Assembly (NCBI GenBank): GCA_964463175.1
Contig: CAYXBJ010000178.1
Location: forward strand, 52,431 to 116,430
Source of the DNA: an uncultured bacterium
GTDB taxonomy: Bacteria; Methylomirabilota; Methylomirabilia; Rokubacteriales; DASRDR01
DNA length: 64,000 nt
Direction of reading: 5' to 3'
Shown here: positions 5,765 through 40,484 of the stretch, piece after piece
How positions within the stretch are numbered: the first letter of the stretch is position 1
Layout: every line of letters starts with the position of its first letter
The notes under the pieces: generated by a model
Databases searched by the model: none
What the model was told of the DNA's origin: nothing
What the model saw: only the letters and a program-made list of their open reading frames with translations
Program-made: the position numbers and the translations under genes

Positions 5765-6028
5765 GCCGTCATTTCACGAGGAAGACGTAGAAGCCGCTCA
5801 CCTGTTTCGTACTCGCCCTTCCGCCGATGCGGTCCATCCCACCGCGCGACGCTCAGCCCGAATGGACTGAGCTCAAACCACGTCTCGATCGCCCCGCGAA
5901 TGGCCACGCACTCCATTCGCCCGAAGGGCTTGAAGAGCATTGGCGATGCCGTCCCCCAGTGTATCGCCGGAAGTCTTGAGCGCCCACGGCGCGTCTAGGA
6001 CTGGGATCCGCTGGCGCTTCGTCACAGC

Positions 6029-9822: not shown

Positions 9823-9954
9823 GGGCAACCCCACTCCCCGTCCTCCGCGCGATGCGCCGCCGGCCGGTCTCACGCGAGCGCGCACATCAGGCCTCATCGG
9901 CCCGTCGGGGCGTGCTGACGGCAGCAGTCCCATGCCCCCTCCACCACCATTCCG

Positions 9955-23204: not shown

Positions 23205-26123
23205 TCACGATCCCGTGCCGGCCCCGACGGTGGCCAGGCCACGCAGGGCCGCAGCGTTGTCGGGCTGGCGCCGGAGCACGGTGCGATACTGCTGGATCGC
23301 CCGGTCGGCAAGTCCCGCCCGCGCGTACAGGTCGCCGAGCTCCGCGCCAAGGTCGCCGTCCGCCGGGCGGAGCCGCTGCGCCACTTCGTAGCTCGCGATC
23401 GCTTCCCGCAGGTAGCCGGCGCCCCGAAGGGCCTGCGCCGCCGCCCGGTGGAGGCGCCAATCGTCGCCGCCGACCGCGGCCGCCGTCCGGTACTCCTGGA
23501 ACGCCTCGGCGGCCTGCCCCCGCTGCTCGAGCAGCCGGCCGAGCTCGAGATGGACCCAGCCATCGTTCGGCTTGTCGCGAAGGATCTGGCGCCACAGCGT
23601 CACCGCCCGCTCCCACTGGCCGCGCTGGACAAACAGGGCGGCGAGCTCTCCCTGGACACGGTGGCGCCGGCTGGCCGGGCCAGGACCGGACTCGGCCAGA
23701 GTCGCAGCGGTGGCGAGCGCGATGTCCGCCTCCATCCCCTGGTTCGTCTGGGCGTAAACCATGGCGAGGACGGCGAAGACCTCCGCCTCTCCCGGCGCCA
23801 GCACCAGAGTGCGGCGGGCCTGTTCGAGCGCGGCCAGCGGGTCTTTCCGATTGATCAGCACCCGCGCGTACGCGAGTCGCGCCTCCACCTCGGTGGCGGG
23901 CTCCTGCGCGAGCGCGATCGCCTGCTCGAACGCGGCGGTGGCGCCCTGCGTTCGCCCGCGGCGCTCCAGATACGATCCGAGCCCGAGGAGCAGGTCGAAC
24001 TTCTGCGGCACGGTCGCCAGGATGAGCTGGTCGTCCACCTGCCGGGCCAGCAAGTCCTCGACAACGCCGTCGAGGAAGCCGGGGTTCAAGGCCACGGCCC
24101 GGCCGAACGCCGCGCTCGCCACCTCGTAGCGGTCCGGTTGACCGACGGCATTCAGCGCGAACGACCCCATGCGCCGGTGTCGATTCGCGTTCTGGGGGTC
24201 CCAGCGGACGGCGTCCTGGAAGTGCGCCAGGGCTTCGGGGAACACGCTCCGCTCCGACCCGACGGTCCCCGCGAGCCGCGGGTCAATCGGGGTCTGGATC
24301 GGGCTCTTCTGGACGACCTGGCGAACATTCTCCAGGGTTCCGAGGAACCAGCCGAACCGCTCGTGCGTGTCGGCCGCCCGCGGCCGGAGCTGGAGGCTCG
24401 TCCGATACGCCTCGTACGCGTCCGCGAGCAGGGGCTGCGCCGCCTCGAACTTCGCTGCGACGGACAGGTCGGACAGGCGCGCGCCGCTCGCGGTGATCCC
24501 GAGCGTCCAGGCGCGGCGCCCGAGCTCGGCGGAGACGTCGGCGAAGTCCGACCAGGCGGCCGGGTTCGAGCGATCCCAGGCAACGGCCGTCCGGAGGCCG
24601 GCGCGCGCCCGGATCAGATCCCCCTGCGGCGTCCCATCCCTTCGCCAGACACTGGTCACCGTGGAGGCGGCACTCGCTCGTTGCCATCCGGCGACGCTCG
24701 GGGGCGCCAGCAGCACCGTGGCGGCGACCACCGCCACCAGGGCGACGAAGACACTCACCGTGCTCCATCCCGGATTCAGGCGCCAGCCCCACCGCTCCAG
24801 GCCAACACGCTCCCCTTCACCATCCCGGTGGAGGGTCGCCGCCAGCGGCAGCAGCCCGGCAATCAGCGCCAGCATCACCGCATTGCCTGGCATGTGGAGC
24901 CCGAAGTCCACGACACTGTGAACCGTGACCGCGACGATCGCGCCAGTGCCTCCCAGCAGGAGCCCGCGGACGAACGGATCGCGGCGACCGCGCCACGCCT
25001 GCACCAGGGATGTCAGCAGCGCCACCAGTGCCCATCCGGCGATCAGCAGGCCCACCACTCCCGTCTCGGCCAGCAGCTGCAGGAAGTCGTTGTGCGCGTA
25101 GTCCACGAACTTGTCGGCCGGAACCTCGACTGGTTGATAGGGCGCGAAGCCATCCCGGAACGCGCCGAGCCCGATCCCGGCGACCGGCGCATCACCGACG
25201 ACTCGCAGCGTCGTCGCCCAGATTCTCGAGCGCAGATCCGACGCGGGCTCCCGCAGCACCTCGGAGAATCGGTCGGTCACCGCCCCGAGTCCGACCCAGC
25301 CGGCGTAGGTGACAACGCCGAGCGCGAGCGCCAGGATGGCCAGCGTGACGTGGTTCCCGGATCGAGCCGTGCGCGCCATGGCGAGCATGGCCAGCACGCC
25401 GACCACGGTACTCACCACACCGCCGCGGGAGAGCGTGAGGGCGAGCGCGAGCGCCAGGACAAGCACGCCACCGACCAGGAACACTCGCACCGTCAGACCC
25501 TCGAGGGCCCCCGCGGGAGGCGCCGACTCGGACCGCCCCGCGTGTCCGCGGCGCGAATGGGCGGAGGGACGCAAGAGCAGTCCCAGGGCCATGAACAGGG
25601 CGATGGAGAAGTAGAGGGCCTGGTGGTTCGGGTTGACGAAGGTGCTCGTCAGGCGGCCCGACGGGCTGGCCGCGAGCCCGCTCCAACCGATCTTGAGCTG
25701 TCCAGCAAACCCCACCCCGGCCAGGACGACCGCCCAGCCAACCAGCGCGAGCGTCAGCCGGGTGAGGCGCGCGCGGGTCATCGGGAGGCCGGTGACCACG
25801 AGGAACAGACCGAAGTAGGCGAAGTAAAGCCGCGCGCTCTCCCAGGTTGCGTACCGGTTGATCGAGCCGCCGGGCGAGAAGACCTGCCAGCCGACGAGGA
25901 CGGCCATCGCCACCGCCGGTCCCAGCAGTGGAGTCCGGCGAATCTCGAGCTCTCCGGACACCGCCATCCGAACGATCCACAGGGCGAGCAGCAGCGCCAC
26001 GCCGCCCTCGATGCCCGCCTGGGCCCAGGGCACGACGGCACCGAGGGGCAGCGGCGCGAACATCAGGAGCGCCACCACTCCGACCTCGATGACGGCGTCG
26101 ATAACCCGGGCGAGTCCAGTCAC
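23205..26123 (-). CDS. O-antigen ligase/polymerase-family (Wzy_C domain) membrane protein fused to a long C-terminal TPR-repeat domain
   Basis: N-terminal ~430 aa polytopic with Wzy_C hallmarks (LALTLSRGG, YAHNDFLQLLAETGVVGL). C-terminal ~450 aa of TPR-like repeats (...AYARVLINRKDPLAALEQARRTLVLAPGEAE..., ...LGDLYARAGLADRAIQQYRTVLRRQPDNAAALRGLA). Confidence 0.75.
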   Translation of the reverse strand: MTGLARVIDAVIEVGVVALLMFAPLPLGAVVPWAQAGIEGGVALLLALWIVRMAVSGELEIRRTPLLGPAVAMAVLVGWQVFSPGGSINRYATWESARLYFAYFGLFLVVTGLPMTRARLTRLTLALVGWAVVLAGVGFAGQLKIGWSGLAASPSGRLTSTFVNPNHQALYFSIALFMALGLLLRPSAHSRRGHAGRSESAPPAGALEGLTVRVFLVGGVLVLALALALTLSRGGVVSTVVGVLAMLAMARTARSGNHVTLAILALALGVVTYAGWVGLGAVTDRFSEVLREPASDLRSRIWATTLRVVGDAPVAGIGLGAFRDGFAPYQPVEVPADKFVDYAHNDFLQLLAETGVVGLLIAGWALVALLTSLVQAWRGRRDPFVRGLLLGGTGAIVAVTVHSVVDFGLHMPGNAVMLALIAGLLPLAATLHRDGEGERVGLERWGWRLNPGWSTVSVFVALVAVVAATVLLAPPSVAGWQRASAASTVTSVWRRDGTPQGDLIRARAGLRTAVAWDRSNPAAWSDFADVSAELGRRAWTLGITASGARLSDLSVAAKFEAAQPLLADAYEAYRTSLQLRPRAADTHERFGWFLGTLENVRQVVQKSPIQTPIDPRLAGTVGSERSVFPEALAHFQDAVRWDPQNANRHRRMGSFALNAVGQPDRYEVASAAFGRAVALNPGFLDGVVEDLLARQVDDQLILATVPQKFDLLLGLGSYLERRGRTQGATAAFEQAIALAQEPATEVEARLAYARVLINRKDPLAALEQARRTLVLAPGEAEVFAVLAMVYAQTNQGMEADIALATAATLAESGPGPASRRHRVQGELAALFVQRGQWERAVTLWRQILRDKPNDGWVHLELGRLLEQRGQAAEAFQEYRTAAAVGGDDWRLHRAAAQALRGAGYLREAIASYEVAQRLRPADGDLGAELGDLYARAGLADRAIQQYRTVLRRQPDNAAALRGLATVGAGTGS

Positions 26124-26881
26124 TTGGAGCGTGCCTCTCCCGACGAGCGGCCCTTGACCGGGTCATAAGCGCTTCGCGTGTAATACCCGTCGTACGTGTC
26201 GTAGTACCGCTTGGAGTAGCCGTGCGCCGCGGCATCGAACCGGTTGAGCACGGCGCCGATGATCCGTCCCCTCACCGCCTCGATGCGCTCCTTTGCGCGC
26301 CGCAGCGCCACCTCTGGTGTCTGCCCGCTGTCCACGACCAGCAGCACGCCGTCGACGTGCGGCGCGAGCGCGCACGCATCGCTCGTTGCGAGCGCCGGCG
26401 GGGAATCGAGGATCACGACGTCGAAGCGCTCCGCCACCGTGTTCAGGAACTCGTGCATCCGTCGGGAGCCCAGGAGCTCGGCGGGGTTCGGAGGCGTCGG
26501 ACCACTCACCACCAGGGAGAGATTCGGGACGGCGCTCTTGAGGAGCACCGCGGCCAGGAGCGAGTCGCCGACGAGGTACGACGACAGCCCCGGCGTGGTG
26601 GGCTGCCGGAACAGACTGTGGACGCTGGGGCGCCGGAGGTCCGCCTCGACCAGGAGGACCGAGCGTTCCCCCTGCGCCATGCTGATCGCCAGATTGGCCG
26701 CGGTCGTCGACTTGCCCTCACCGGGGCCGGCGCTCGTCACCAGGATGCGCCGGAGCGGGACGTCGGGATTCGCGTAATGGAGGTTGTTCCGGAGCACCCG
26801 GAATGCCTCGGCGGCGAACGACTGAGGGTCATTCAGCGTCACGAGGCTCGAGGGCGAGGACGAGCTCTTCAACGGGGTCAT
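26120..26881 (-). CDS. Bacterial tyrosine autokinase, cytoplasmic subunit (CpsD/CapB-like BY-kinase)
   Basis: Walker A SAGPGEGKSTTAANLA, Walker A' VLLVEADLRRP, Walker B DVVILDSPP, C-terminal Tyr cluster YSKRYYDTYDGYYTRSAY. Confidence 0.85.
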   Translation of the reverse strand: MTPLKSSSSPSSLVTLNDPQSFAAEAFRVLRNNLHYANPDVPLRRILVTSAGPGEGKSTTAANLAISMAQGERSVLLVEADLRRPSVHSLFRQPTTPGLSSYLVGDSLLAAVLLKSAVPNLSLVVSGPTPPNPAELLGSRRMHEFLNTVAERFDVVILDSPPALATSDACALAPHVDGVLLVVDSGQTPEVALRRAKERIEAVRGRIIGAVLNRFDAAAHGYSKRYYDTYDGYYTRSAYDPVKGRSSGEARSK

Positions 26882-26895
26882 CTCCTCTCTCCGAC

Positions 26896-28254
26896 CTAGC
26901 TACGCGCTCGGGGGAGCATGGGAATCAGGGAGAACACGGGTACACCGAGCGCATGCTCCACCTGCTCGGGCGTGCGAACGCTGTCGTCCATGTATTCGAG
27001 GAAGAAGGCAGCGCCGAGGCCCACGATCAGCCCCATGAGCGCGCCGAGCGCCAGGTTCAGCGTCTTTCGCGGCTTGATGGGGGACGTGGGGACGATGGCC
27101 GCCTCCACGATCCGGATGTTGTTCGAGTCCAGACCCTGGCTGAGGCTCGTCTCCTTGAGGCGCTTCAGCAGCACGTCATACAGCTGCTGGTTCGAATCCG
27201 CCTCTCGCTTCAGGATCCCGTACTGGATCTCCTTCTTCCCGAGAGCCTGGGCCTCGTCGCGGTACTGGTTCACGGCCTGGAGCATCGCGTTCTCGCGCGC
27301 CTTGAGCGCGTTGTACTCGCTCTCCATGCTGAGCGAGAGCCGGCCCACCTCTTCGCGGATCTTCAGCTGGATCTCGTCGATCTGGGACTGGATCTTGACG
27401 ACCTCGGGGTGCTTCTCGCGGTATGTCTTGAGGAGCTTGGAGCGCTGAACCTCGAGCTCGACGAGCTGGCCCTTCAGCTTCTGGATCAACGGATTGTTGA
27501 TCACCATCGGCGAGGACTCCAGCAGCTCGGGCTGCGTCGAGGCGCGCTTGAGCTCGCCCAGGCGCGTCTCCATCTCGAGCCGCTTGGCCTTCGCCTCGAT
27601 GTACCCGCTGTTGAATTCGGCGAGCTTACGGACCCCCAGGCTTTGCTTCTCCTCGACCTGGACCAGCCCCGCCTGCTCGCGGTAACGCTGAAGCGCCAGC
27701 TCCGACTCGTTCACCTTGTTCTTGAGGTCGGAGACCTGCGCGGTGAGCCAGCTGAGGGCATCGCGCGCGGACGACAGCTTCAGCTCGAGATTCTGATGGA
27801 CGTACGTGGTCGCCAGGGTATTGGCGATCTCCGCCGCGAGCTTGGGGTCCTCGTCCTCGACACGGATCTCGATCAGGCGCGTGTTCCGGATCGGCTCGAC
27901 CGAGATCGCGCCGAGGAACGACGACGCCGGATCGGCCGCCAGGGCCAGCCCCGGCTTCTTCGTCTTGAGCTCGAGGGTATCGATCACCCGCTCGGCCACG
28001 GGCCGGCTCTTGACGATCTGGACCTGCGTCTCGAAGAACTCCGTGGATTCGGGCGCGATGCCCGCGGCGTCCTGGAAGTTCACCACCCGCGGCCCCTCAC
28101 GCTCGAGGAGCGCCTTGGTCGCCGCCCGGTAGACCGGACGCTGGAGATAGGTGCCGAGAGCCACCGTCGCGACGATCACGACGAAGCACGCGACGACCAG
28201 CCAGGCGTGCTTCCGCAGCACACGGATGTACTCACGCAGATGGACCTGTTCCAT
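26896..28254 (-). CDS. Polysaccharide co-polymerase (Wzz/GumC/CpsC-like PCP-2b, transmembrane subunit without kinase domain)
   Basis: N-terminal TM (LVVACFVVIVATVALGTYL), long coiled-coil periplasmic domain, C-terminal TM (LNLALGALMGLIVGLGAAFFL). Start may be the upstream M (28290). Confidence 0.8.
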   Translation of the reverse strand: MEQVHLREYIRVLRKHAWLVVACFVVIVATVALGTYLQRPVYRAATKALLEREGPRVVNFQDAAGIAPESTEFFETQVQIVKSRPVAERVIDTLELKTKKPGLALAADPASSFLGAISVEPIRNTRLIEIRVEDEDPKLAAEIANTLATTYVHQNLELKLSSARDALSWLTAQVSDLKNKVNESELALQRYREQAGLVQVEEKQSLGVRKLAEFNSGYIEAKAKRLEMETRLGELKRASTQPELLESSPMVINNPLIQKLKGQLVELEVQRSKLLKTYREKHPEVVKIQSQIDEIQLKIREEVGRLSLSMESEYNALKARENAMLQAVNQYRDEAQALGKKEIQYGILKREADSNQQLYDVLLKRLKETSLSQGLDSNNIRIVEAAIVPTSPIKPRKTLNLALGALMGLIVGLGAAFFLEYMDDSVRTPEQVEHALGVPVFSLIPMLPRARS

Positions 28255-28304
28255 GAAACCCTCACTCGACACGGTGTGTCCCGGCGGCATTGCGGCCCCC
28301 TAGC

Positions 28305-29450
28305 CTAGAAGTAGCTCTCCGGCACGACGACCACGTCGTTGGCCGTGAGCGGAATGTCCCTGTCCTTGCGGCCCCGCTTGATGACCTCGTTGAGATCCAC
28401 GACGATCGTTTCCTGGCGACCGTCGCGATAAGTCCGGATGATCTTCGTCCGGTTCGGGGCAGCCTTGTCGGTGAAGCCTCCCGCGAGCGCGACGCCCTCG
28501 ATGGCGGTCCCCGCCTGCTCGAGCTGGTAGGCGCCGGGCTTCTTCACCTCGCCCATGACGTAGAAGGTGTTCCCGGCCGGCACGAGGACCGTGTCCCCCT
28601 CCGCCAGCAGAAAGTCGCGGGCGCGTGGGTCGGCGCCGCTCAGATCGATCGGGATCGTCTCCTGGCTGCCGTCCGGCTGCTTCCTGAGCACCTTGGAGAC
28701 CGACGAGGCGGCCCGCTCCGAGAAGCCGCCGGCCAGCGTGATGGCCTCGAGTGCCGAGGTCTCCTTCTCCAGCACGAAGGCGCCGGGCTTCTTCACCTCG
28801 CCCATGACGTAGAAGCTCGTCTGCTTCGCGATGTAGACGGTGTCACCGTTCTCGAGGGGAAGGTTCTCCGAGCTGTCGCCGTCGAGGAGCTTCCGGAGAC
28901 TCACGCGAATCGTCGTGCTACCCGCCGCGCCCGGAGTCACGGGACCATCGGCCTTCGGGAGGCGAACGACCACCGCCTGGCGGCCCGCGAACTTGCTGGG
29001 GCCCCCCGCCTGGGACAGCACGTCCAGCAGCGTCGAGCGCCCGGTGAGGAAGTAGGTGCCGGGCTTGTCGGCCTCGCCCAGGACGAAGACCCGTTGCGAC
29101 CGGTACTCCTGGACCGACACGGTCACCTGGGGATCGACGAGGTAGTCCTTCCCGAGCTGCTGCTGGAGGCGGGTCTCCAACTCGGTCGGGGTCAGGCCTC
29201 CCGCCGCCACGTCTCCGATCAGAGGAAAGGGCATGCGTCCGTCCCCCGCAATGACCGACGTGCGGGCGAGGTCCTCATGTCCGTAGACCGTGATCTTCAG
29301 AATGTCCCCGGGTCCGATCCGGTAGTCCTGGCCCTTGGGGCTGGAGGCCTGAGCGCGTGCGGCGCCCGCCCCGAGTAGGAGCAGACCCAAGGCCAGCAGG
29401 AGGAGGCCGTAGAGGGGGAGCCTCGATCGGTGGGCGAGCTTCATCATCAT
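28305..29450 (-). CDS. Outer-membrane polysaccharide export protein (OPX/Wza family), short form with two SLBB-type repeats; no C-terminal OM helix
   Basis: Signal peptide. Poly_export-like N-domain (DYRIGPGDILKITVYGHEDL), two GDT..FYVMGEVKKPGAY repeats. Ends ...VVVPESYF. Confidence 0.85.
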   Translation of the reverse strand: MMMKLAHRSRLPLYGLLLLALGLLLLGAGAARAQASSPKGQDYRIGPGDILKITVYGHEDLARTSVIAGDGRMPFPLIGDVAAGGLTPTELETRLQQQLGKDYLVDPQVTVSVQEYRSQRVFVLGEADKPGTYFLTGRSTLLDVLSQAGGPSKFAGRQAVVVRLPKADGPVTPGAAGSTTIRVSLRKLLDGDSSENLPLENGDTVYIAKQTSFYVMGEVKKPGAFVLEKETSALEAITLAGGFSERAASSVSKVLRKQPDGSQETIPIDLSGADPRARDFLLAEGDTVLVPAGNTFYVMGEVKKPGAYQLEQAGTAIEGVALAGGFTDKAAPNRTKIIRTYRDGRQETIVVDLNEVIKRGRKDRDIPLTANDVVVVPESYF

Positions 29451-29590
29451 CTGGAGTTGTTCCTATGCTTTCAGACGCCGGCAGGAGCAGCCGTCCGAGG
29501 TCGCGATAAGGCAGAAGTCCCTGTTGGGCACGATTTAGGTACTACGAGCAACTCTCGTGCCTAGAGTCAGGGAGGAGCAGGCGGGCTAGG

Positions 29591-31222
29591 CTAGAAGTAG
29601 CTCTCCGGGACGACGACGACGTCGTTGGCGGCCAGCGGTAAGTCCTTGTCTTTCCTACCGCGCTTGATCACCTCGTTGAGGTCCACGACGAATGTCTCCT
29701 GGCGGCCATCAGGCAGCGTACGGATCACTTTGGTGCGATTTGGCGCTGCCTTGTCCGTGAATCCGCCCGCCATGGCGATCGCTTGGATCGCGGTCGTGGT
29801 CTGATCAAGCTGATAGGCTCCTGGCTTCTTCACTTCGCCCATCACGTAGAAGGTGTTCCCGACGGGCACCAGGAGAATATCTCCATCCTTGAGGAGGAAT
29901 TCCCTTGCCTTTGGATCCGCCCCGGAGAGATCCAGGATATGGATCTCCTCCGTCCCGGAGGCAAGTCGGCGCGTGAGCTTCACCTGGGTATGGAGGGCCT
30001 TCTCGGTGAACCCCCCGGCGAGCGTCAGCGCCCCCACCGCCGTCGTGGCCGGATCGAGCGGGTAAGCGCCCGGCTTCCGCACCTCACCCAGGACGTAGAA
30101 CGCGTTGCCGGACGGGACCAGGAGCGTGTCGCCGTCGCGGAGTGGATAGTCGCGGCCGGCACGATCCGACCCCGAGAGGTCCAGGACGACGGTCTGCTCC
30201 TCCCCGGAGGCTCCCCGGCGAATCAGCTTGACCTGGCTCTGACCCGCCTTCTCGGTGAACCCCCCGGCGATCGTCACCGCCCCGAAGGCGGTCGTCGACT
30301 TCTCGAGGGGATAGGCTCCGGGCTTCCGCACCTCGCCCGACACGAAGAACGTGTTGCCGCGCGGGATGAGCAGGGTGTCACCCTCGGCGATTTGCACGTC
30401 CCGGGCGCGCGGATCAGCCAGGTCGACATCGAGGCTCTCCTGACTGCCGTCCGCCCGCTTTCGCAGGATCTTGGCCCCGCTCGGCGCGGCCCGATCGGTG
30501 AAGCCGCCGGCGAGCGTCACCGCCTCGAGGGCGTTCGTCTCCTTGTCCATTGCGTAGGCGCCCTGGCGCAGAACCTCCCCCAGGACGAAGAACGAGGTCA
30601 GCTTCGGGACATAGACGGTGTCGCCGTTCTGGAGGAGGATGTTCTCGCCCGGCACGCCATCCAGCAGGCGTTTGAGATCGGCGCGGAACGCGACGCTGCC
30701 CGCCGCGCCCGGGGTCACAGGGCCATCGGACTGAGCCCCGCGAACGACCACGACTTGGCGCCCGGCGTTCTTGCCAGGCCCTCCGGCCTGGGACAGGACG
30801 TCTAGCAGCATTGTCTGGCCGGTCAGCGCGTAGGTCCCGGCCTTGTCCACCTCGCCCAGCACGAAGACGCGCTGGGAACGATACTCCGCCACGGTGACGG
30901 AGACCTGCGGGTTGACGAGATAGTCCTTCCCGAGGAGGTCCCGGAGGAGCGTCTCGATAGCACCCGGCGTGAGGCCGCCCACGCGAACATCGCCGATCAG
31001 CGGGAACTGGAACGAGCCGTCCCCCGAGACGACGACCTGCTTTGTCAGGTCGTCGTGCCCCCAGACGGTGATCTTCAGGACGTCCTTCGCCCCGACCTTG
31101 TACTCCGTCGGACCGCCGCTACCCGCAGCCTGGGCGGCAGCGGGACCCGCGGGAACGAGCAGGAGGGCAACGAGTAGGAGGGCGGTCATGGCCGCCGGAA
31201 ACCATCGCACACTTACACCCAT
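29591..31222 (-). CDS. OPX/Wza-family export protein, long paralog with four SLBB-type repeats; no C-terminal OM helix
   Basis: Signal peptide (MTALLLVALLLVPAGPAAAQA). EYKVGAKDVLKITVWGHDDL, then four GDT..(F/Y)V.GEV(R/K)KPGAY repeats. The last ~90 aa are near-identical to the short paralog. Start set at MGVSVRW (31220-31222); the track ORF's upstream 160 codons are not credible. Confidence 0.8.
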   Translation of the reverse strand: MGVSVRWFPAAMTALLLVALLLVPAGPAAAQAAGSGGPTEYKVGAKDVLKITVWGHDDLTKQVVVSGDGSFQFPLIGDVRVGGLTPGAIETLLRDLLGKDYLVNPQVSVTVAEYRSQRVFVLGEVDKAGTYALTGQTMLLDVLSQAGGPGKNAGRQVVVVRGAQSDGPVTPGAAGSVAFRADLKRLLDGVPGENILLQNGDTVYVPKLTSFFVLGEVLRQGAYAMDKETNALEAVTLAGGFTDRAAPSGAKILRKRADGSQESLDVDLADPRARDVQIAEGDTLLIPRGNTFFVSGEVRKPGAYPLEKSTTAFGAVTIAGGFTEKAGQSQVKLIRRGASGEEQTVVLDLSGSDRAGRDYPLRDGDTLLVPSGNAFYVLGEVRKPGAYPLDPATTAVGALTLAGGFTEKALHTQVKLTRRLASGTEEIHILDLSGADPKAREFLLKDGDILLVPVGNTFYVMGEVKKPGAYQLDQTTTAIQAIAMAGGFTDKAAPNRTKVIRTLPDGRQETFVVDLNEVIKRGRKDKDLPLAANDVVVVPESYF

Positions 31223-31269
31223 GGCGTGACCCTGGACAGCGCGAAACACCGGCAGACGTCGTGCGCGGC

Positions 31270-32463
31270 TCAGTAGGTCAGTATCACGCTCGCCTTGATG
31301 CGGTTGTCCGTGTAGCTGAACTCGTTGAAGTTCGAGTTCAGGTCCAGGTAGTTGTAGCCGATCTCGAACGCCAGCCACTTCTTCATCTGGTACTTGAGGC
31401 TCACCCCGGCCTCGAAGAACACGTCCTCGCGCTGGGCGGTCTTCGTCCCGACGGTGCTGTCCTCCGGATAGTCGTTGACGCCGCCGAGCCCTCTCACCCG
31501 GAGGACCAGCCGCTCGCTGAGGAAGTGCCGGACTTCGACACCAGCGTAGTTCGAGACGTAGTAGAGCTGTCCCTCGAACGTCGACTCGACGTTCGCTCGG
31601 CCACCGAAGACCCGGACCTCCGACGGCTCGCGGTACTTCCAGATGATGTTCCCCTCGACGATCAAGCCGTCCCAGTCCTTCACCAGCGGATTGTCGTAAT
31701 TCTTCCACTCCCAGCCCGCCTTGACGAGAAGCGTCGTCTTCGCGGTGACATCGCCCTTGAGACCGAGCCAGAACCGCCAGCCCTCGGAGTCGCGGACGGC
31801 GGCGGACGCGGCGTCATCGTAGCGAACCACCACGTAGTCGAGCTCGCCAAGGACCGACGTCTTCGGCAAGAAGCGATAGAAGAACGTTCCGGTCCCGGTG
31901 TAGTCTTGGCGGTTGAGATTCTCTTCGGGGGCATCGTAGTCGACGAGGAACCAGCGGAAGTTCGCGTCGAACGAATAGCGCTCCCGGAGGGTGTAGTTCG
32001 CTCCGGCGTCGAGCGTGTTCTCGGTCCGCTCGACAAGCTGCGTCAGCTCCGGCACCGGGAACCCGGCGAAGTCGTCGGTGATGATGAACCGATCGCTGAG
32101 CCGCAGCGAAAGATTCCAGGGAAAGTTGTACTGCCCATCGACCAGGGCGTTGTGGTGGACGGTGTTGAGATCGGTGTTGTCGGTGTACTCGAGGATGTCG
32201 GCGCGGTAGCCGATGCGCGCGGTGTAGTGGTTGCCCGGAAGCTCGATGAGGATACCCGGGCTGATGACCCAGATGAAATCCTGGATCTTGTCGGTGTTTG
32301 TGAGCAGGATGTTGTCGTCGTACTCGCCCGACAGCTCGAGCGACGTGAGTATCCGGAAGGGGCCGAGCTGGATGTTACCCTGGGCAGCCGCGGGCCCCGC
32401 CAGCCCCATGATCAGCAGCAGGGCGATTCCAACCGAGATCCCCGCAGCGCGCCCTCTCAACAT
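31270..32463 (-). CDS. Predicted outer-membrane beta-barrel protein (candidate OM partner of the helix-less OPX proteins)
   Basis: Signal peptide MLRGRAAGISVGIALLLIMGLAGPAAAQG. Alternating hydrophobic/aromatic beta-strand pattern throughout; aromatic C-terminus ...IKASVILTY. GC ~53-55%. Confidence 0.55.
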   Translation of the reverse strand: MLRGRAAGISVGIALLLIMGLAGPAAAQGNIQLGPFRILTSLELSGEYDDNILLTNTDKIQDFIWVISPGILIELPGNHYTARIGYRADILEYTDNTDLNTVHHNALVDGQYNFPWNLSLRLSDRFIITDDFAGFPVPELTQLVERTENTLDAGANYTLRERYSFDANFRWFLVDYDAPEENLNRQDYTGTGTFFYRFLPKTSVLGELDYVVVRYDDAASAAVRDSEGWRFWLGLKGDVTAKTTLLVKAGWEWKNYDNPLVKDWDGLIVEGNIIWKYREPSEVRVFGGRANVESTFEGQLYYVSNYAGVEVRHFLSERLVLRVRGLGGVNDYPEDSTVGTKTAQREDVFFEAGVSLKYQMKKWLAFEIGYNYLDLNSNFNEFSYTDNRIKASVILTY

Positions 32464-32559
32464 ACCCCTCCCGGTGACAAAGCAGCGCCACCGTCGGGCA
32501 ACAGACCCGGTACGGTGGCGGCGCTGGTTAGGTTCGCTCTGAACGACCTGGCCGACGGC

Positions 32560-33132
32560 CTACTCGTTCCCGGTCGGGCTCGTCTGCTGCGAGATCCACC
32601 CCGGCAGGTTCGTCTGGAAATTCTCGGGCGGCAGGCCCCCGTAGGTCTCCACGAACTTGAGGATGGTGAACGTCCCCAGGGTCTGGAGGAACGGCACCGA
32701 CCCGCCCGACTGCGCGATCGGACCCGTCCCCGACATGCGGATGGTGATGTTGCCCGGATCGTCCCCGAGGGTGCGACCGACGATCTCGGCCTTGTTGGGC
32801 TCCACCACGATCACCCGGCCATTCGGCAAGAGGATCTCGACGCGTCCCTCGCTGCTCTCCACGAGGATGAGGTTCTTGGCCGAGGTGACCACTCGCGCCT
32901 CGCCGACGAGCGTCTTGACGACCAGCTTGCTCGCGTCCGGCTGGAAGGAGGTCTCGGCCGACGCGCCCTGTCCCAGCACCAACTCGAGACCGCCGAAGGA
33001 GGTCTTGCTAGGTCCGTTGATGATGCGCTTCTCGTCTTCCGCGGCCCAGGTGGCCGTGGCAGCAACCACGATCAGTGCGGCGAGCAATGCCGACAATGCC
33101 CTACGCGTCATATTCCCCTTCCCCCAATCCTC
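32560..33132 (-). CDS. Small secreted protein of unknown function (first gene downstream of the sigma-54 promoter)
   Basis: ATG 33130-33132 is preceded by GGGGAAGGGGAAT (strong Shine-Dalgarno). Signal peptide MTRRALSALLAALIVVAATATWA|AEDE. ~190 aa, no known motif. Confidence 0.6.
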   Translation of the reverse strand, partial: EDWGKGNMTRRALSALLAALIVVAATATWAAEDEKRIINGPSKTSFGGLELVLGQGASAETSFQPDASKLVVKTLVGEARVVTSAKNLILVESSEGRVEILLPNGRVIVVEPNKAEIVGRTLGDDPGNITIRMSGTGPIAQSGGSVPFLQTLGTFTILKFVETYGGLPPENFQTNLPGWISQQTSPTGNE

Positions 33133-33191
33133 GGGCCCATCAGGCCCGGCAGGTACAAGAACTCTATTCAAGGAAACGCGGCAACGATACA

Positions 33192-33207
33192 GCAAGGTGA
33201 GTGCCAA
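33192..33207 (-). promoter_or_regulatory. Sigma-54 (RpoN) -24/-12 promoter directing transcription toward 33132 and the downstream OM/OPX genes
   Basis: Minus-strand sequence TTGGCACTCACCTTGCT matches TGGCAC-N5-TTGC exactly (GG and GC elements, correct spacing). It lies about 60 nt upstream of ATG 33132. Confidence 0.6.
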
Positions 33208-33400: not shown

Positions 33401-34831
33401 ATGGACCAACCGGTCGTTCTCATAATCCACGAAGACGCGGCTGTCCGGGCCCTGCTCGGGCGGATGCTGCCCTCCTTCGGGTACACGGTCCGGACCGTGA
33501 CATCCGGGGAAGAGGCTATCGACCAGCTCACCCAGGGGGATGTCACCGTCGCCCTCCTGGACCTGGACCTCCCCGGCATGTCGGGCGCCGACACCCTCCG
33601 CGCGATCCGGGCCATGTCCCCTGCTCCCGAAGTCGTGGTCACGTCCGCCCGGGGGACCGTGACGGCTGCCGCGGATGTCGCTCGCCACGGCGCCTTCGAC
33701 TTCGTCCCGCAGCCCTTCGACCTAAAGGACTTGAACCACGTCCTCCGCACGGCCCACGACCAGGCCGTCCGGCGACGCCAGGCGCTCCACCTCGAGGCCG
33801 CGCTCAAGGCCCACGACCCGTTCCCCGAGATCGTCGGCCGGAGCACGGGGATCAAGCGAGTGCTCGCTCTCGTCAACAAAGCCGCGCGGACGCTCTCCCC
33901 CGTCCTCATCCAGGGCGAGAGCGGCACGGGCAAGGAGCTGGTGGCCCGGGCGCTGCACGCCAACAGCCCTCGCGCGAACGCGCCCCTCACAATCGTCGAT
34001 TGCGGCGCCCTCCAGGACACCCTCCTCGAGAGCGAGCTCTTCGGTCACGAGCGCGGTGCGTTCACCGGTGCCCACGGGCTCAAGCACGGGCTCTTCGAGA
34101 CCGCCAACCAGGGCACTCTCTTCCTGGACGAAATAGGCGAGATGAGCCCGGCGACCCAGGTGAAGGTCCTGCGCGCGCTCCAGTCCGGGGAGTTCCGGCG
34201 GATCGGCTCGAACCGCCACATCAAGGCCGATATCCGGGTGATCGCCGCGACGAACAAGGAACTGAAGGACGAAGTCCAGCGCGGCCGCTTCCGGGAAGAT
34301 CTCTACTACCGGATCGCGGTCATCGAGATCTACATGCCCGCGCTCCGGGAGCGGACGGATGACATCCCGCTCTTGGTCGAGCACTTCCTGCGGATCAACG
34401 CCTACGGCGGGCGGGAGCGCCTGCACGTCACGCCGGACGCCATGACGAGCCTGGCGCGGTATGCGTGGCCGGGCAACATCCGCGAGCTGCGGAATGTCAT
34501 CGAGCGGCTGTCGGTCCTCGCGGACAGCCAGGTGCTCACGGTCGACGCCCTGCCGCCGGCCATCGTGAAGGCGTCCCAGGAGCCCACCGAGTCGGCGGGG
34601 CTCCCCCGGCCGGCGGACGCCGGCCGGACCGACGGCGGGGGCGACATGACGCTCGACGATGTGGAGCGGCACCACATCATGCGGACCCTCGAGCGCCACC
34701 GCTGGAACAAGAAGCGGGTCGCGGGCATCCTTGGCATCGACACCAAGACGCTGTACAACAAGCTGCGCCGCTACGGGGTCCCCATCGGCTCACGTGGTGA
34801 CGGCGATGCGGCCGCCAGTTCCTCTGCCTAG
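33401..34831 (+). CDS. Sigma-54-dependent transcriptional activator (NtrC/Fis family; receiver + AAA+ + HTH)
   Basis: Receiver domain (ALLDLDLPGMSG). AAA+ with Walker A GESGTGKELVARALH and GAFTGA motif (ERGAFTGA), ...DIRVIAATN. C-terminal Fis-type HTH (RWNKKRVAGILGIDTKTLYNKLRRYG). Confidence 0.85.
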   Translation: MDQPVVLIIHEDAAVRALLGRMLPSFGYTVRTVTSGEEAIDQLTQGDVTVALLDLDLPGMSGADTLRAIRAMSPAPEVVVTSARGTVTAAADVARHGAFDFVPQPFDLKDLNHVLRTAHDQAVRRRQALHLEAALKAHDPFPEIVGRSTGIKRVLALVNKAARTLSPVLIQGESGTGKELVARALHANSPRANAPLTIVDCGALQDTLLESELFGHERGAFTGAHGLKHGLFETANQGTLFLDEIGEMSPATQVKVLRALQSGEFRRIGSNRHIKADIRVIAATNKELKDEVQRGRFREDLYYRIAVIEIYMPALRERTDDIPLLVEHFLRINAYGGRERLHVTPDAMTSLARYAWPGNIRELRNVIERLSVLADSQVLTVDALPPAIVKASQEPTESAGLPRPADAGRTDGGGDMTLDDVERHHIMRTLERHRWNKKRVAGILGIDTKTLYNKLRRYGVPIGSRGDGDAAASSSA

Positions 34832-35308: not shown

Positions 35309-35653
35309 TCAGGCCTCGGCGAGCAGTCCCCGCACCACTTCGGTCAGGCGGTCGCGGAGCTCCGGATCATCCGGCTCGTAGACATCGAGGATTCCCAGCA
35401 CCCGGACCTTGGGTGCGTGCGCGGGCCAGTGCTTCCGGATGTAAGCCTCGTGTTCCGGTTCCATGACGCAGACCACGTTCGCCCACGCGAGATCCCGTGA
35501 CGTGAGCGGGCGGCCGCCGGGGTCGGGATCGACGCCGGCCGAGCGCGCTTCGTGCTCGCCGCGTCTCGCGACGCTCCAGCTGAGCACCTGAAAGATCTGC
35601 TCACCGACCCGGCTCCGGCAGACATTGCCTCGGCAGACGAACAGGACCCGCAT
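35309..35653 (-). CDS. Low-molecular-weight protein-tyrosine phosphatase (Wzb-like, LMW-PTP/ArsC fold)
   Basis: P-loop VCRGNVCRS (CX5R), DVYEPDD (D-P-Y-like general-acid region); 114 aa. Confidence 0.7.
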   Translation of the reverse strand: MRVLFVCRGNVCRSRVGEQIFQVLSWSVARRGEHEARSAGVDPDPGGRPLTSRDLAWANVVCVMEPEHEAYIRKHWPAHAPKVRVLGILDVYEPDDPELRDRLTEVVRGLLAEA

Positions 35654-35803: not shown

Positions 35804-36502
35804 TCACGCTCGGCCCCCCTCGCCGAGCTGACCGTCGCTCAACGCCAGGACGCGGTCGGCGGCGCGGGCGAGCTCCGCGCTGTGCGTGACCAGCACCACC
35901 GCCGATCGGCCGCTGCGCGCCCGGGCCCGGAGCTCGGCGAGCAGGATGGCGGCGTTCTCCGGGTCCAGGTTCCCGGTGGGCTCGTCCGCCAGGATGACCG
36001 CCGGATCGTTGAGCACGGCGCGACAGAACGCGACCCGCTGCTGCTCCCCGCCGGAGAGCGCCGGCGGGTACTGCTCCGCCCGCTCCGACATGCCCAGTCT
36101 CTGGAGAAGGCTGAGCGCCTCCGTCTCGGCGGCCGCCCGCGCCCGCCCGACGTAGCGGGCAGCGAGGAGCACGTTCTCGCGCGCGGTCATCTCCGGGATG
36201 AGGTTGTACGTCTGGAACACGAAGCCCAGGTGCCGGCCGCGAAAGCCAGCCAATGCTCGACGGCTCGCGCCGGTCAGGCGCTCGTCGCCGAACCAGAGCT
36301 CGCCCCCGTCGCTCCGGTCGAGGCACCCCAGGAGGTTCAGGAGCGTGGACTTCCCCGACCCCGAGCGTCCGACGACGGCCAGAAGCTCCCCGCGGGTCAG
36401 GGCGAGGTCCACCCCGCGGAGCACCTCGAGCACGCGGCCGTCCGGGGTCCGGAAGCGTTTGGTCAGGCCGATTGCCCGGAGGAGCGGAGCGCCGGAGCCC
36501 AC
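35804..36502 (-). CDS. ABC transporter ATP-binding protein (LolD/MacB-NBD/FtsE-like)
   Basis: GRSGSGKSTLLN Walker A, LSGGEQQRVAFCRAV signature, ILADEPTGNLD Walker B. GTG start just downstream of the permease stop. The 5' 145 codons of the track ORF are an out-of-frame read of the permease gene. Confidence 0.8.
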   Translation of the reverse strand: MGSGAPLLRAIGLTKRFRTPDGRVLEVLRGVDLALTRGELLAVVGRSGSGKSTLLNLLGCLDRSDGGELWFGDERLTGASRRALAGFRGRHLGFVFQTYNLIPEMTARENVLLAARYVGRARAAAETEALSLLQRLGMSERAEQYPPALSGGEQQRVAFCRAVLNDPAVILADEPTGNLDPENAAILLAELRARARSGRSAVVLVTHSAELARAADRVLALSDGQLGEGGRA

Positions 36503-36506
36503 GGCG

Positions 36507-37697
36507 TCAGGCCCCGCGCCGGATCGCCTCGGCCGGCGACACCCGGAGGATTCGGACGGTCGCGTACGCGCCGGCGATCGCTCCGAGCACGAGCGCGAAC
36601 CCGAGGGCGAACACCACGAGCCGGCCCGAGAACAGGAACAGGTGCTGGCCCACCTGGGCCGCGCGGGTGTCGAACGCCATCCCGCCGAGCACCGCGACGG
36701 CCGTCCCGAGCAGGCCCCCGCCAAGACTGACGGCGACGCTCTCTCCCAGGACCTCGCCGAGCAGGCGCAGGTCGGTCGCGCCGAGGGCCTGCTTGATCCC
36801 GAAGTCGCGGATCCGCTCGAAGGTCGCGGCCGCGACCGTGTTCGAGAGGGACAGCCCCCCGATGAGGAGCCCGACTCCGGTGACGCCGGCCATGAGCCAG
36901 GAAAAGAACGCCGTCGATCCGGCCAGCTGGTTCGCAATCTCGCTCGGGGCGACGACGTTGACGCCGGCCACCTCGTGGCGGATGCGCTCCGCGAGCGCGT
37001 CCGGATCGACGCCGTCCGCCCACCCCACTGCCGCCCCCGTGTTGAGATCGCTGGGCGTCAGGAGCCCGGCCGTCATGAACAGCGCGCGGAGCGTGGGATC
37101 GAGCCCGAGCCAGAGCTCGCGAGCGTCCTCGATCGGCACGAGGGCGAAGCGGTCGGGCGCGGTGAGCAGGCGCTCGCCGACGCCGACGACCTCGAAGTCG
37201 CGCTCGCCGATTCGGAGTCGGCTGCCGGCGTGCAGGCCGTGCCCCGCCGCCAGGTCGGCGCCGACGACAGCGCGGCCCCGATCGGCCACGGTCAGGCTAC
37301 GCCCTTCCGCGATGGGGAACGTCCGGTAGTTCCGGTTCGGCGACGGGATGCTCAGATCGACGCCCAGGACGAGCTCCTGGGTCACCGAGAAGATCTGGGA
37401 CGTGGCCGGGTTCAGCGGGACCATGACCTGGGGCTGGACCGCCGCGACGCCGGGAACCCGGCGGATCGCCTCGATGGTCTGCCGGCGCAAGAGGCCGCCG
37501 GACGTGAAGCCCGTCCCGGTTCCGATGCCCGCGCCGGCCACCGAGATCTGGCCCAGCACGAAGCGGTGCCCCCCGTCGATGAACCGGCTGATGCGGTCAG
37601 AGAGCGCGCCCAGAGCCACGAGCCCCGCGATCCCGACGGCGATGCCGGCGACCGCGAAGCCATAGCCTCGTGGCAGCACGCGCCACCGCCGGCGCAT
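36507..37697 (-). CDS. ABC transporter permease, FtsX/MacB/LolC-E family (4 TM with large periplasmic domain)
   Basis: N-terminal TM. MacB-PCD-like periplasmic region. C-terminal FtsX domain (...IKQALGATDLRLLGEVLGESVAVSLGGGLLG...). Confidence 0.75.
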   Translation of the reverse strand: MRRRWRVLPRGYGFAVAGIAVGIAGLVALGALSDRISRFIDGGHRFVLGQISVAGAGIGTGTGFTSGGLLRRQTIEAIRRVPGVAAVQPQVMVPLNPATSQIFSVTQELVLGVDLSIPSPNRNYRTFPIAEGRSLTVADRGRAVVGADLAAGHGLHAGSRLRIGERDFEVVGVGERLLTAPDRFALVPIEDARELWLGLDPTLRALFMTAGLLTPSDLNTGAAVGWADGVDPDALAERIRHEVAGVNVVAPSEIANQLAGSTAFFSWLMAGVTGVGLLIGGLSLSNTVAAATFERIRDFGIKQALGATDLRLLGEVLGESVAVSLGGGLLGTAVAVLGGMAFDTRAAQVGQHLFLFSGRLVVFALGFALVLGAIAGAYATVRILRVSPAEAIRRGA

Positions 37698-37722
37698 CGC
37701 GCCTCGGCCGCTCACCCGTCGG

Positions 37723-40183: not shown

Positions 40184-40190
40184 CTGGTGG

Positions 40191-40466
40191 TCACGCCCCC
40201 GGGGCCCGCGCGGCGACGAAGCGCACCAGGGCGCCGAACGTCCCGAAATGCGTCGCCACGTCCTCCCCTTCCTGGATCACGATGCCGAACCGCTCCTCCA
40301 GCGCGATCGACAGCTCGATGAAGTCGAGCGAGTCGAGCCCGAGCGTGCCCTCGATGCCCTTGGGGAGCGGCGTCTCGGAGGTCAGCGCGGACAGACGCGC
40401 CGGGTCGAACCGGAGTCGCTTGACGATGATGTCGCGCAACTCCCCGATGATCGCTCGCTCGTCCAT
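40191..40466 (-). CDS. Acyl carrier protein
   Basis: LGLDSLDFIELSIALEERFG (DSL phosphopantetheine site); 91 aa. Confidence 0.8.
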   Translation of the reverse strand: MDERAIIGELRDIIVKRLRFDPARLSALTSETPLPKGIEGTLGLDSLDFIELSIALEERFGIVIQEGEDVATHFGTFGALVRFVAARAPGA

Positions 40467-40484
40467 CCGTCCTCCCGTCCCTGC

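Follow-up and report, generated by a model that had tools for sequence, protein, structure and literature searches.

A tandem pair of long and short OPX paralogues in a Wzx/Wzy-type exopolysaccharide locus of a Rokubacteria relative

Background

The closest described counterparts of the genes analyzed in this work are WzaB/WzpB/WzcB and WzaX (EpsY)/WzpX (EpsX) of M. xanthus, and VpsN/VpsM of V. cholerae. In these Class-3 systems the OPX protein consists of a Poly_export domain followed by SLBB domains only, and its gene adjoins genes for an outer-membrane β-barrel and for a PCP or BY-kinase (PMC9603273, PMC9601211, PMC12819527). In WzaB, experimental mapping places the porin contact in the SFF tail and the PCP contact in the α1β5 loop; SFF is needed for binding the β-barrel WzpB, and oligomerisation requires N-terminal lipidation (PMC12819527). 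Published models differ as to how Class-3 proteins bridge the periplasm from PCP to β-barrel porin, whether by OPX rings alone, by stacked rings, or with the help of an extending PCP. E. coli Wza (Class-1, 2J58) is built on Poly_export and SLBB ring-forming domains as well, and is partnered by a Wzc-type PCP and the phosphatase Wzb. Wza is lipidated, carries two SLBB, and crosses the outer membrane by a pore made of C-terminal amphipathic helices.

The locus described here lies in a 64-kb window, the whole stretch of DNA that was analyzed, from a relative of Candidatus Rokubacteria (Methylomirabilota), a group of uncultured soil bacteria. It resembles the Class-3 systems in domain order and gene neighbourhood, and departs from them in hosting two tandem OPX paralogues for one barrel and one PCP. 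The proteins, of 381 and 543 aa with three and five SLBB, are moreover much longer than the usual barrel-coupled OPX, 93% of which are <=280 aa in the Schwabe survey. We favor, with a probability of about 0.6, the view that they are an old, fixed Class-3 pair serving one Wzx/Wzy-type exopolysaccharide locus, and that they provide two conduits of alternative length sharing porin and PCP. A literature search on PF10082, tandem OPX genes and exopolysaccharide export in Rokubacteria returned nothing relevant.

Results

Organization of the locus

The two OPX genes are adjacent on the minus strand, as are all genes described below unless otherwise stated. The upstream unit starts with a small ORF (32560..33111) encoding a putative secreted protein of 183 aa, which has a signal-peptide-like N-terminus and no family match. 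It continues with an outer-membrane β-barrel of 397 aa (31270..32463), presumably the porin with which the OPX proteins pair, and ends with the long OPX copy, OPX-B (543 aa, 29591..31222). Wzp porins are 18-stranded AlgE/PgaA-like β-barrels. The barrel of the present locus is assigned by Pfam to BBP2_2 (PF10082, E=3e-36, profile positions 4-376 of 378); weak matches to TIGR03016 and EpsL are both under cut-off. A 140-nt spacer separates OPX-B from the short copy, OPX-A (381 aa, 28305..29450). This is followed by the genes for an EpsF-like polysaccharide co-polymerase (PCP) with Wzz and GNVR domains (464 aa, 26896..28290), a BY-type tyrosine autokinase encoded as a separate gene (253 aa, 26120..26881; TIGR01007, 167.9 bits versus a cut-off of 108), and a membrane protein of 972 aa in which Wzy_C (O-antigen ligase/polymerase-like) is fused to TPR repeats (23205..26123). 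The priming transferase gene (Bac_transf, 18802-20268), the Wzx gene (15097-16512) and several GT4 genes have the same orientation as the PCP, kinase and Wzy_C genes. On the opposite side, a σ54-dependent NtrC-type response regulator is divergently encoded on the plus strand (33401..34831), and a Wzb-like low-molecular-weight phosphotyrosine phosphatase, kept in related loci, is found on the minus strand at 35309..35653. Genes comparable to the Wzc and Wzb partners of E. coli Wza are thus present in the window.

Wzx, priming transferase, PCP, BY-kinase and β-barrel occur once each in the 64-kb window, with no second barrel, PCP or kinase. An earlier, sequence-only reading of this DNA had proposed that a single pathway has two channel components differing in length, and the single set of partners fits the proposal.

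The neighbourhood recalls PEP-CTERM loci in the EpsF-like PCP, the tyrosine kinase, the TIGR03016-like barrel and the σ54 response regulator. Both OPX proteins exceed the cut-off (180 bits) of TIGR03027, the XrtA/PEP-CTERM system exopolysaccharide export protein family, a 169-position model spanning only the Poly_export domain (D1) and the first SLBB, with 191.2 and 198.8 bits, and OPX-B exceeds that of TIGR03028 (EpsE; 282 versus 263). Unlike the XrtA/PEP-CTERM system, no exosortase is found among the genes of the window, and all matches of the neighbours to the PEP-CTERM equivalogs of the PrsK/PrsR/PrsT and EpsF/G/L series, TIGR03007/03017/03018/03016/02915/02917, are under cut-off.

Domains and docking ends of the OPX proteins

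Poly_export (PF02563) is recognized with 88.8 bits in OPX-A and 84.2 bits in OPX-B (cut-off 28), and is followed in Pfam searches by three and five SLBB stretches (PF10531/PF22461), respectively. These domains, and the co-encoded PCP and Wzx/Wzy assembly genes, are those expected of OPX family members. The two and four GDT..(F/Y)V.GEV(K/R)KPGAY repeats counted in the sequence-only reading are all there, and one divergent first SLBB per gene accounts for the Pfam totals. In OPX-B, D1 (aa 38-111, 30890..31111) precedes unit 1 (30593..30868), which is of the SLBB_2 type with a loop insertion and is orthologous to OPX-A unit 1 (68% aa). Unit 2 (30350..30592) has its counterpart in OPX-A unit 2 (64% aa), and terminal unit 5 with the PESYF tail (29594..29851) in OPX-A unit 3 and tail (28308..28565), at 84% aa and 77% nt identity. 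The surplus of OPX-B consists of the middle units 3 and 4 (29852..30349), which are missing from OPX-A and are mutual closest relatives (65% aa, 70% nt). AlphaFold2 models of OPX-B (pLDDT 85) and OPX-A (pLDDT 79) display repeated β-grasp units and end with a β-strand without a C-terminal helix; inter-domain geometry is uncertain in these monomer models (pTM 0.37-0.42). The best Foldseek matches of the OPX-B model are Wza 2J58 (E=7e-21, 276 columns) and WzaB 9n9a. WzaB 9n9a is also the solved protein nearest in sequence (E=1.4e-27), and the nearest solved relative of OPX-A.

Judged from these features, both are Class-3 OPX proteins, periplasmic and devoid of outer-membrane helix and lipobox. 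After the last SLBB there is no Pfam match to Wza_C (PF18412) or GfcC (PF06251) at E<=0.01; the last SLBB_2 match stops at residue 538 of 543, and each protein ends within five residues of its last SLBB. The pairing with a barrel that distinguishes Class-3 proteins (Saïdi et al. 2022) is seen in the BBP2_2 gene, which lies directly upstream here and, in related loci, invariably sits next to the long OPX on its 5' side. Neither the helix nor the lipidation of Wza has a counterpart. WzaB is a lipoprotein as well, whereas OPX-A and OPX-B carry type I signal peptides with AxA-type signal-peptidase I sites, judged by inspection, and no cysteine in the N-terminal region; a lipobox-like pattern occurs in only 5 of 120 homologues.

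The two ends plausibly involved in docking are alike in the two copies. WzaB (chain 9n9a) aligns via VFVPE up to its SFF end, and OPX-A and OPX-B terminate in VVVPESYF, so that the di-aromatic tail is S-Y-F in both copies and S-F-F in WzaB (VPESFF; Mellouk et al. 2026). The C-terminus E-[ST/R]-x-[F/L] is found in 115 of the 120 closest homologues. In 79 genome loci containing 75 OPX genes, presence of the tail motif correlates with a barrel homologue in the neighbourhood (9/17 versus 1/58, Fisher p=1.7e-6). The loop LGKDYLV[D/N]PQV is nearly identical in both copies, and occupies the position of the PCP contact of WzaB. Here R-Y-V-R-R of WzaB aligns with K-D-Y-L-V; since the twin arginines of the α1β5 loop are replaced by L-V, a PCP contact of OPX-A and OPX-B is suggested by positional analogy only. 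By comparison with WzaB, both paralogues would thus retain the porin-facing tail and the loop facing the PCP. Because both ends are kept in both proteins, each OPX probably assembles into a homo-oligomeric ring stack of its own, with the BBP2_2 barrel and the PCP as docking partners common to both stacks. Two observations weigh on the other side. D1 is the most diverged domain (59% aa), and different partners at the D1 end could be the cause, against shared docking. Similarly, the missing lipobox would count, by analogy, against a WzaB-like assembly, given the lipid requirement of WzaB.

Age of the duplication

The sequence-only reading had regarded the pair as a recent tandem duplication, with a near-identical C-terminal stretch of about 90 aa, a similarity extending into the DNA and the downstream spacer, and subsequent gain or loss of internal repeats. 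The C-terminal region is indeed the most similar part of the proteins, though at 75 of 90 residues, or 84% aa across the terminal SLBB unit versus 59-68% for the other domains, near-identity is an overstatement. The repeated strings at the two 3' ends also exist, one base away from where they had been placed (28301-28343 and 29587-29629), and match at 40 of 43 nt. Past the stop codon the alignment is limited to the 8 nt TAGsCTAG, beyond which the flanks cannot be aligned, and a repeated spacer was discarded. Whole-gene comparisons by blastn and word search give a DNA identity of about 70% and a maximum of 18 nt for exact common words. In the last 270 nt, 78% of all positions and 52% of third positions agree. 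In the terminal domain the same codon is used at 39 of 72 identical residues, where codon usage leads to an expectation of 40.3±3.8, and the DNA similarity therefore does not exceed what protein similarity and codon bias predict. By the Nei-Gojobori method pS is 0.50-0.65 over all four OPX-A/OPX-B domain pairs, indicative of saturated synonymous sites. All domains are under purifying selection, the terminal one most strongly (dN/dS 0.07), and this selection explains the match of the 3' ends. The match is neither residual identity nor detectable gene conversion.

A recent origin is also at odds with the occurrence of the pair in lineages whose orthologues are just 66-86% identical, and with the look of a truly younger event, a unit duplication in L093 in which DNA and protein identity are both 83%. 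We regard it as refuted by the synonymous sites, despite the 43-nt stretch and the similarity of the terminal domains. What stands of the earlier proposal is that the paralogues differ in SLBB number, and that this number is labile. Concerted evolution, in which occasional gene conversion keeps the terminal domains alike, could account for the high identity of the terminal unit compared with the other domains, and for the placement of the L085 OPX-B terminal unit among OPX-A terminal units in a neighbour-joining tree. The trees in question are however unbootstrapped and based on about 85 residues, and in the same trees of units and D1 copies cluster mostly by paralogue, not by genome. The OPX-A terminal unit is 94% identical to its L083 orthologue versus 84% to the neighbouring OPX-B, and the paralogue-specific residues QLEQAGTAIEGVALAGG and QLDQTTTAIQAIAMAGG are kept across genomes. 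Conversion further predicts a low pS in the terminal domain, where the value is the highest of all (0.65). Such a process looks improbable. On comparative grounds, the duplication and the difference in unit number are older than the split of the lineages bearing the pair.

In the same trees, which have no support values, the single five-unit OPX L088-B, L089 and L090 branch off before either clade, a hint that OPX-A has lost units rather than OPX-B gained them. Had units 2 and 4 recombined, with deletion of units 3 and 4, OPX-A unit 2 should be a chimera; its core is unit-2-like, and its tail is marginally closer to unit 4 (0.64 versus 0.59, segment-wise identities).

Errors of assembly had been considered too, as 83-aa repeats may confuse assembly programs, and frameshifted copies are present in L006, a long-read MAG. 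Two independent Logan assemblies (L001 and L002), 99.8-99.9% identical to window positions 28786-32817 and 29139-32199, reproduce the OPX-B gene and span both the barrel/OPX-B and the OPX-B/OPX-A junctions, and rule out an artefact. The within-gene units, <=70% identical in DNA, are too different to collapse. Decay of one copy into a pseudogene is contradicted by intact ORFs, dN/dS values of 0.07-0.33 and conservation in many assemblies. Collapse, expansion and decay can hence be given next to no weight.

Conservation and putative promoters

At least seven further independent assemblies contain a long and a short copy in this order, with OPX-B orthologues 66-86% identical. The succession barrel, long OPX, short OPX, PCP, kinase, Wzy-TPR is observed in L083/L084, L085, L086/L087, L088, L091, L093 and L006; these data come mostly from metagenome contigs, as a genome set with one genome per species gave few close relatives. 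In L083, L085, L086, L088, L091 and L093 the place of the small ORF is taken by a gene that codes for 169-262 aa and has no Pfam match, and an NtrC-type regulator is kept beside the locus. The two genes are ordinary conserved paralogues of an uncultured phylum. The lesson for annotation is that neither recent duplication nor faulty assembly need lie behind similar 3' ends in adjacent OPX genes.

Conservation bears also on the idea, raised earlier as an option, that each OPX is devoted to a different polymer, a second pathway being encoded elsewhere in the genome. In L003 the short and long copies are 5 kb apart, and related genomes host a second type of locus, whose only OPX is a long one (L089, L092). 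In turn, the pair is strictly adjacent in at least eight loci, one flippase, priming transferase, PCP and barrel are present in the 64-kb window, and the two copies do not differ in their docking ends, all of which make a substrate-specific pair quite unlikely. Some related loci have a single OPX, either long (L089, L092, L090) or short (L004, L005, L007). One OPX of either length suffices there, which counts against a need for two conduits.

Two sites resembling σ54-type (-24/-12) promoters, and considered putative promoters, are found on the minus strand. P1, TGGCACTCACCTTGCT (33191..33206), lies about 80 nt 5' of the small ORF, and a corresponding motif is at the matching relative position in L083, L084, L085, L086 and L091. 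P2, AGGCACGAGAGTTGCT (29547..29562), lies inside the spacer between OPX-B and OPX-A, and is the sole exact match to GGCACG-N4-TTGC in the window. GGCACG and TTGC are invariant within the otherwise unalignable spacers of L083, L085, L086 and L088; the motif is found also in L084, L091 and L093, and is absent from L003, L089 and L092, where the PCP gene directly follows OPX-B. The divergent NtrC-type regulator is a candidate activator of both sites. A conserved motif hence precedes two groups of genes, small ORF/barrel/OPX-B and OPX-A/PCP/kinase/Wzy, and its conservation in the spacer suggests that OPX-B and OPX-A probably stand at the end and at the head of different transcription units. Neither an intrinsic terminator nor a σ70 promoter was found between the OPX genes; as a terminator is missing, read-through from P1 is likely.

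This arrangement would suit a division of labour, with OPX-B hanging from the outer membrane and OPX-A sitting on the PCP, and rings stacking or handing over the polymer in a two-tier conduit. The sites split the genes into barrel plus OPX-B and OPX-A plus PCP, D1 is the domain in which the copies differ most, and separate PCP-bound and porin-bound OPX populations have already been proposed (PMC9603273). Moreover, the extrapolated lengths add up to about 350 Å, close to the 327 Å measured for the M. xanthus periplasm (PMC9603273), though the width may differ in Rokubacteria. The porin-type tail and the α1β5 loop are however alike in both copies, so neither end is visibly specialised, and the likely read-through blurs the separation of the two groups. 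A two-tier conduit is accordingly an unlikely arrangement.

Discussion

In the preferred scenario, an old pair of alternative conduits sharing porin and PCP, one pathway would be equipped with two interchangeable periplasmic conduits. Extrapolation from the published 62 Å of WzaB and about 100 Å of Wza gives lengths of roughly 140 Å (four rings) for OPX-A and 215 Å (six rings) for OPX-B. Two lengths may serve compact versus extended states of the PCP, differences in periplasm width, or different forms of the polymer. That the lengths are put to use as a system is a more tentative proposition. The pair might be a length switch, bridging porin and PCP in two states of the envelope or of the PCP, or might build a stacked conduit of about 350 Å, in which case one σ54 promoter would drive the barrel together with the long copy, and another the PCP together with the short copy. 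If true, either would be a translocon architecture undescribed for Wzx/Wzy pathways.

The number of SLBB units ranges from 3 to 9 per protein among the 120 best homologues. The orthologue in L093 has six, the two newest being those that are 83% identical in both DNA and protein, and the long copy is still gaining units in some relatives. With the same two ends, a different number of middle rings, one porin and one PCP, these loci amount to a natural experiment on the role of conduit length.

Results

A long and a short Class-3 OPX protein with a common porin-type tail are encoded as a conserved pair in Rokubacteria. The window, with a G+C content of 69%, has Candidatus Rokubacteria MAGs as its nearest genome relatives. 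The locus is read on the minus strand. First in transcription order is a small secreted-protein ORF (33111-32560, 183 aa, no Pfam match), followed by an outer-membrane β-barrel gene (32463-31270, Pfam BBP2_2), the long OPX-B (31222-29591, 543 aa), a spacer of 140 nt between 29591 and 29450, and the short OPX-A (29450-28305, 381 aa). 3' of OPX-A, on the same strand, lie genes for a Wzz/GNVR polysaccharide co-polymerase (PCP; 28290-26896), a BY-type tyrosine kinase encoded as a separate gene (26881-26120) and a Wzy_C-TPR protein (26123-23205). A GAF histidine kinase, an aminotransferase, a Bac_transf priming transferase, GT4 glycosyltransferases, one Wzx-type flippase, a deacetylase and sugar-nucleotide enzymes are encoded farther downstream. 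Divergent upstream genes encode a σ54-dependent NtrC-type response regulator (33401-34831, plus strand), a single-domain receiver and a low-molecular-weight phosphotyrosine phosphatase. In the 64 kb, OPX genes number two, whereas barrel, PCP and kinase are each encoded once.

According to Pfam, OPX-A consists of a Poly_export domain and three SLBB stretches, OPX-B of Poly_export and five. Units A1-A3 and B1-B5 were delimited by cutting both proteins at the FYVxGEV motif. A1 pairs with B1 (68% amino acid identity), A2 with B2 (64%) and A3 with B5 (84%); B3 and B4 are mutual best matches (65%). The sequence-only reading had counted four against two GEVKKPGAY-type units and had singled out the C-terminus as the most similar part of the two proteins. 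Both observations are correct, and the unit difference stands. Wza_C and GfcC modules are absent from both proteins, which stop no more than 5 residues past the last SLBB. Their N-termini resemble type I signal peptides, without a cysteine. In AlphaFold2 models (pLDDT 85 for OPX-B, 79 for OPX-A) both are strings of β-grasp domains with a final β-strand; the best Foldseek matches are Wza (2J58, E=7e-21) and the Class-3 OPX WzaB (9n9a), the latter being also the closest solved structure by sequence. Judged by its domains, the pair has the architecture defined as Class 3 by Saïdi et al., Poly_export-SLBB(1-7) (PMC9603273).

The same reading held that the similarity extends into the DNA and continues in the downstream spacer. 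An excess over what the protein requires is not borne out, nor is a repeated spacer. The strings it quoted, at 28301-28343 and 29587-29629, do match at 40 of 43 positions. By blastn, however, the two genes are only ~70% identical over their alignable parts, and the longest exact common word is 18 nt. The last 90 codons hold 75 identical residues, but only 47 identical third positions. In the A3/B5 terminal domain pS is 0.65, pN 0.10 and dN/dS 0.07 (Nei-Gojobori proportions); in the remaining domain pairs pS is 0.50-0.60 and dN/dS ~0.3. The same codon is used at 39 of the 72 identical A3/B5 residues, versus 40.3±3.8 expected from random draws from each gene's own codon usage. Past the stop codons only TAG-s-CTAG is in common, and the following 95 nt cannot be aligned. 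Since pS is at a saturated level, the same-codon count at expectation and the flanks unalignable, the 3' resemblance is protein-level constraint viewed through a strong GC3 codon bias.

Assembly error does not account for the duplication. Positions 28786-32817 and 29139-32199 recur at 99.8-99.9% identity in two independent Logan assemblies of other sequencing runs; both assemblies include the entire OPX-B with its junctions to the barrel gene and to OPX-A.

GC3 drops to 0.67-0.77 at 29690-29960 (OPX-B residues 421-510), versus ~0.9 in the remainder of the OPX pair and in the neighbouring genes. The low-GC3 stretch is exactly the domain closest in protein to OPX-A. It may reflect chance, a separate history, or selection that disfavours recombination between OPX-A and OPX-B.

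The duplication had been taken as recent, a view contradicted by its distribution. An OPX-B query retrieves many proteins of ~540 aa with five units (53-86% identical), and many of ~380 aa with three. Among the best 120 matches, 72 have five SLBB units, 33 three and 7 four (partly truncated); six units occur in 3, seven in 1, eight in 2 and nine in 1. The tandem pair recurs in the same context in L083/L084 (OPX-B orthologues 86% identical), L085 (81%), L086/L087 (81%), L088 (66%), L091 (68%), L093 and L006, a MAG with frameshifts. The order in these loci is divergent response regulator, small ORF, barrel, long OPX, short OPX, PCP, kinase and Wzy-TPR. The window's A3 is 94% identical to A3 of L083 and 84% to its own B5, which in turn is 87% identical to B5 of L083. 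Terminal units cluster mostly by paralogue, and paralogue-specific residues are kept across genomes. Duplication and unit difference are thus old and fixed in the clade. In neighbour-joining trees (Poly_export domain plus unit 1, or single units) the A and B clades lie side by side, and the middle units form a separate old clade. These trees, which carry no support values, hint that OPX-A may derive from a five-unit ancestor.

The idea of paralogues gaining or losing repeats within one pathway is, in turn, supported. In L093 the long copy (5001-6881, protein P0003) has six units, the neighbouring short copy still three. The additional unit duplicates unit 3; the two newest units, 83% identical both in protein and in DNA, look as expected for a unit duplication of comparatively young age. 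Repeat number is still labile, and it is changing in the long copy only. Six, seven, eight or nine SLBB units are found in the close OPX-B relatives P0003, P0015, P0071, P0076, P0002 and P0087.

Other arrangements occur. In L003, whose B protein is 68% identical to OPX-B, a short 3-SLBB copy lies ~5 kb upstream of the barrel, not adjacent to the long one (3392-4972 vs 9959-11587). The more distant Rokubacteria L004, L005 and L007 have a single OPX of two or three units between barrel and PCP. A single 5-unit OPX is found in L090, as well as in L089 (6737-14774) and L092 (3700-11614). These last two represent a second, paralogous locus type of related bacteria, set in a FecR/CHASE2-cyclase context, with a barrel but neither a short OPX nor a σ54 motif after the OPX gene; PCP and kinase are fused in L089. 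In other phyla too, two OPX genes share a locus: an Acidobacteriota MAG (L055, 9698-11972) carries an adjacent pair of 2-SLBB OPX genes, and a Firestonebacteria MAG (L027, 9665-12067 and 16843-19209) two OPX of ~800 aa, 5 kb apart. In the database protein P0045 (929 aa) two tandem OPX genes are apparently fused by frameshifts: arginine/proline-rich garbled stretches separate the OPX segments; mid-protein, a signal peptide and a Poly_export domain start for a second time. An error in assembling its contig or in calling the genes is the probable cause.

Discussion

The spacer between the two OPX genes cannot be aligned between orthologous loci, except for GGCACG-N4-TTGC, which matches the σ54 -24/-12 consensus (P2; 29547-29562, minus strand). 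The motif is present in every tandem-pair locus, and absent where the PCP gene directly follows the long OPX. A similar site, TGGCAC-N5-TTGCT (P1; 33191-33206, minus strand), lies 5' of the small ORF next to the barrel gene, and is conserved in L083, L084, L085, L086 and L091. Both motifs hold position in orthologous loci despite unalignable surroundings. No terminator-like structure was found between OPX-B and OPX-A. P1 and P2 are putative promoters. Given the conserved motifs and the neighbouring σ54-dependent regulator, P1 would likely drive the small ORF, the barrel and OPX-B, possibly with readthrough, and P2 would likely drive OPX-A, PCP, kinase, Wzy and onward. By this split the porin would be co-expressed with OPX-B, and the inner-membrane machinery with OPX-A.

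OPX genes are likewise paired with a β-barrel gene in Myxococcus xanthus and Vibrio systems (PMC9601211). In the survey of Schwabe et al., 93% of barrel-coupled OPX are ≤280 aa, so that the OPX described here are unusually long (381 and 543 aa); unusual is also the number, as two copies adjoin one barrel. WzaB binds the porin WzpB through its last three residues, S-F-F, and uses the α1β5 loop of Poly_export to bind its PCP (Mellouk et al., PMC12819527). Its chain ends in VFVPE+SFF, both OPX-A and OPX-B in VVVPESYF, and 115 of 120 homologues have a tail of the form E-[S/T/R]-x-[F/L]. Across 75 OPX genes from genome loci L003-L082, a tail E-[S/R/T]-x-[F/W/L] directly past the last SLBB coincides with a BBP2_2-like barrel gene within 1.5 kb (9/17 versus 1/58, Fisher p=1.7e-6). 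This suggests that the WzaB-type docking tail marks barrel-coupled OPX widely, in different phyla. The loop aligned to WzaB R103-R107, LGKDYLV(D/N)PQV, differs between the paralogue families only at D/N, though the WzaB arginines are not conserved. Both paralogues could plausibly dock the same barrel and the same PCP, and strong purifying selection on the barrel-facing ring would then explain the 84% identity of A3 and B5.

Mixed OPX-A/OPX-B rings are unlikely: no matter which end is used to align the two proteins, their domains fall out of register. WzaB (Poly_export plus one SLBB) is 62 Å long, and Wza (plus two) ~100 Å (PMC12819527). Extrapolating ~38 Å for each added ring, OPX-A would measure ~140 Å and OPX-B ~215 Å. 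Two lengths might serve compact and extended PCP states, suit a periplasm of variable width, or build a stacked two-tier conduit. The pair would be of greater interest should the two lengths prove functionally distinct.

The position between P1 and the barrel gene is always occupied by a small secreted-protein ORF in related loci, and the protein encoded at 32560-33111 is a possible candidate for an unrecognised component of the export machinery. For two polysaccharide-cluster genes on the minus strand, 8485-9933 (482 aa) and 17647-18750 (367 aa), Pfam gives no hit at E<=1e-5. Immediately past the regulator genes, 35804-42685 (minus strand) encodes a MacB/FtsX-type ABC exporter and four ketoacyl-synthase-like proteins. 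This block is also found next to the orthologous locus L086, and may be linked to the polysaccharide system, perhaps through a lipid or polyketide modification.
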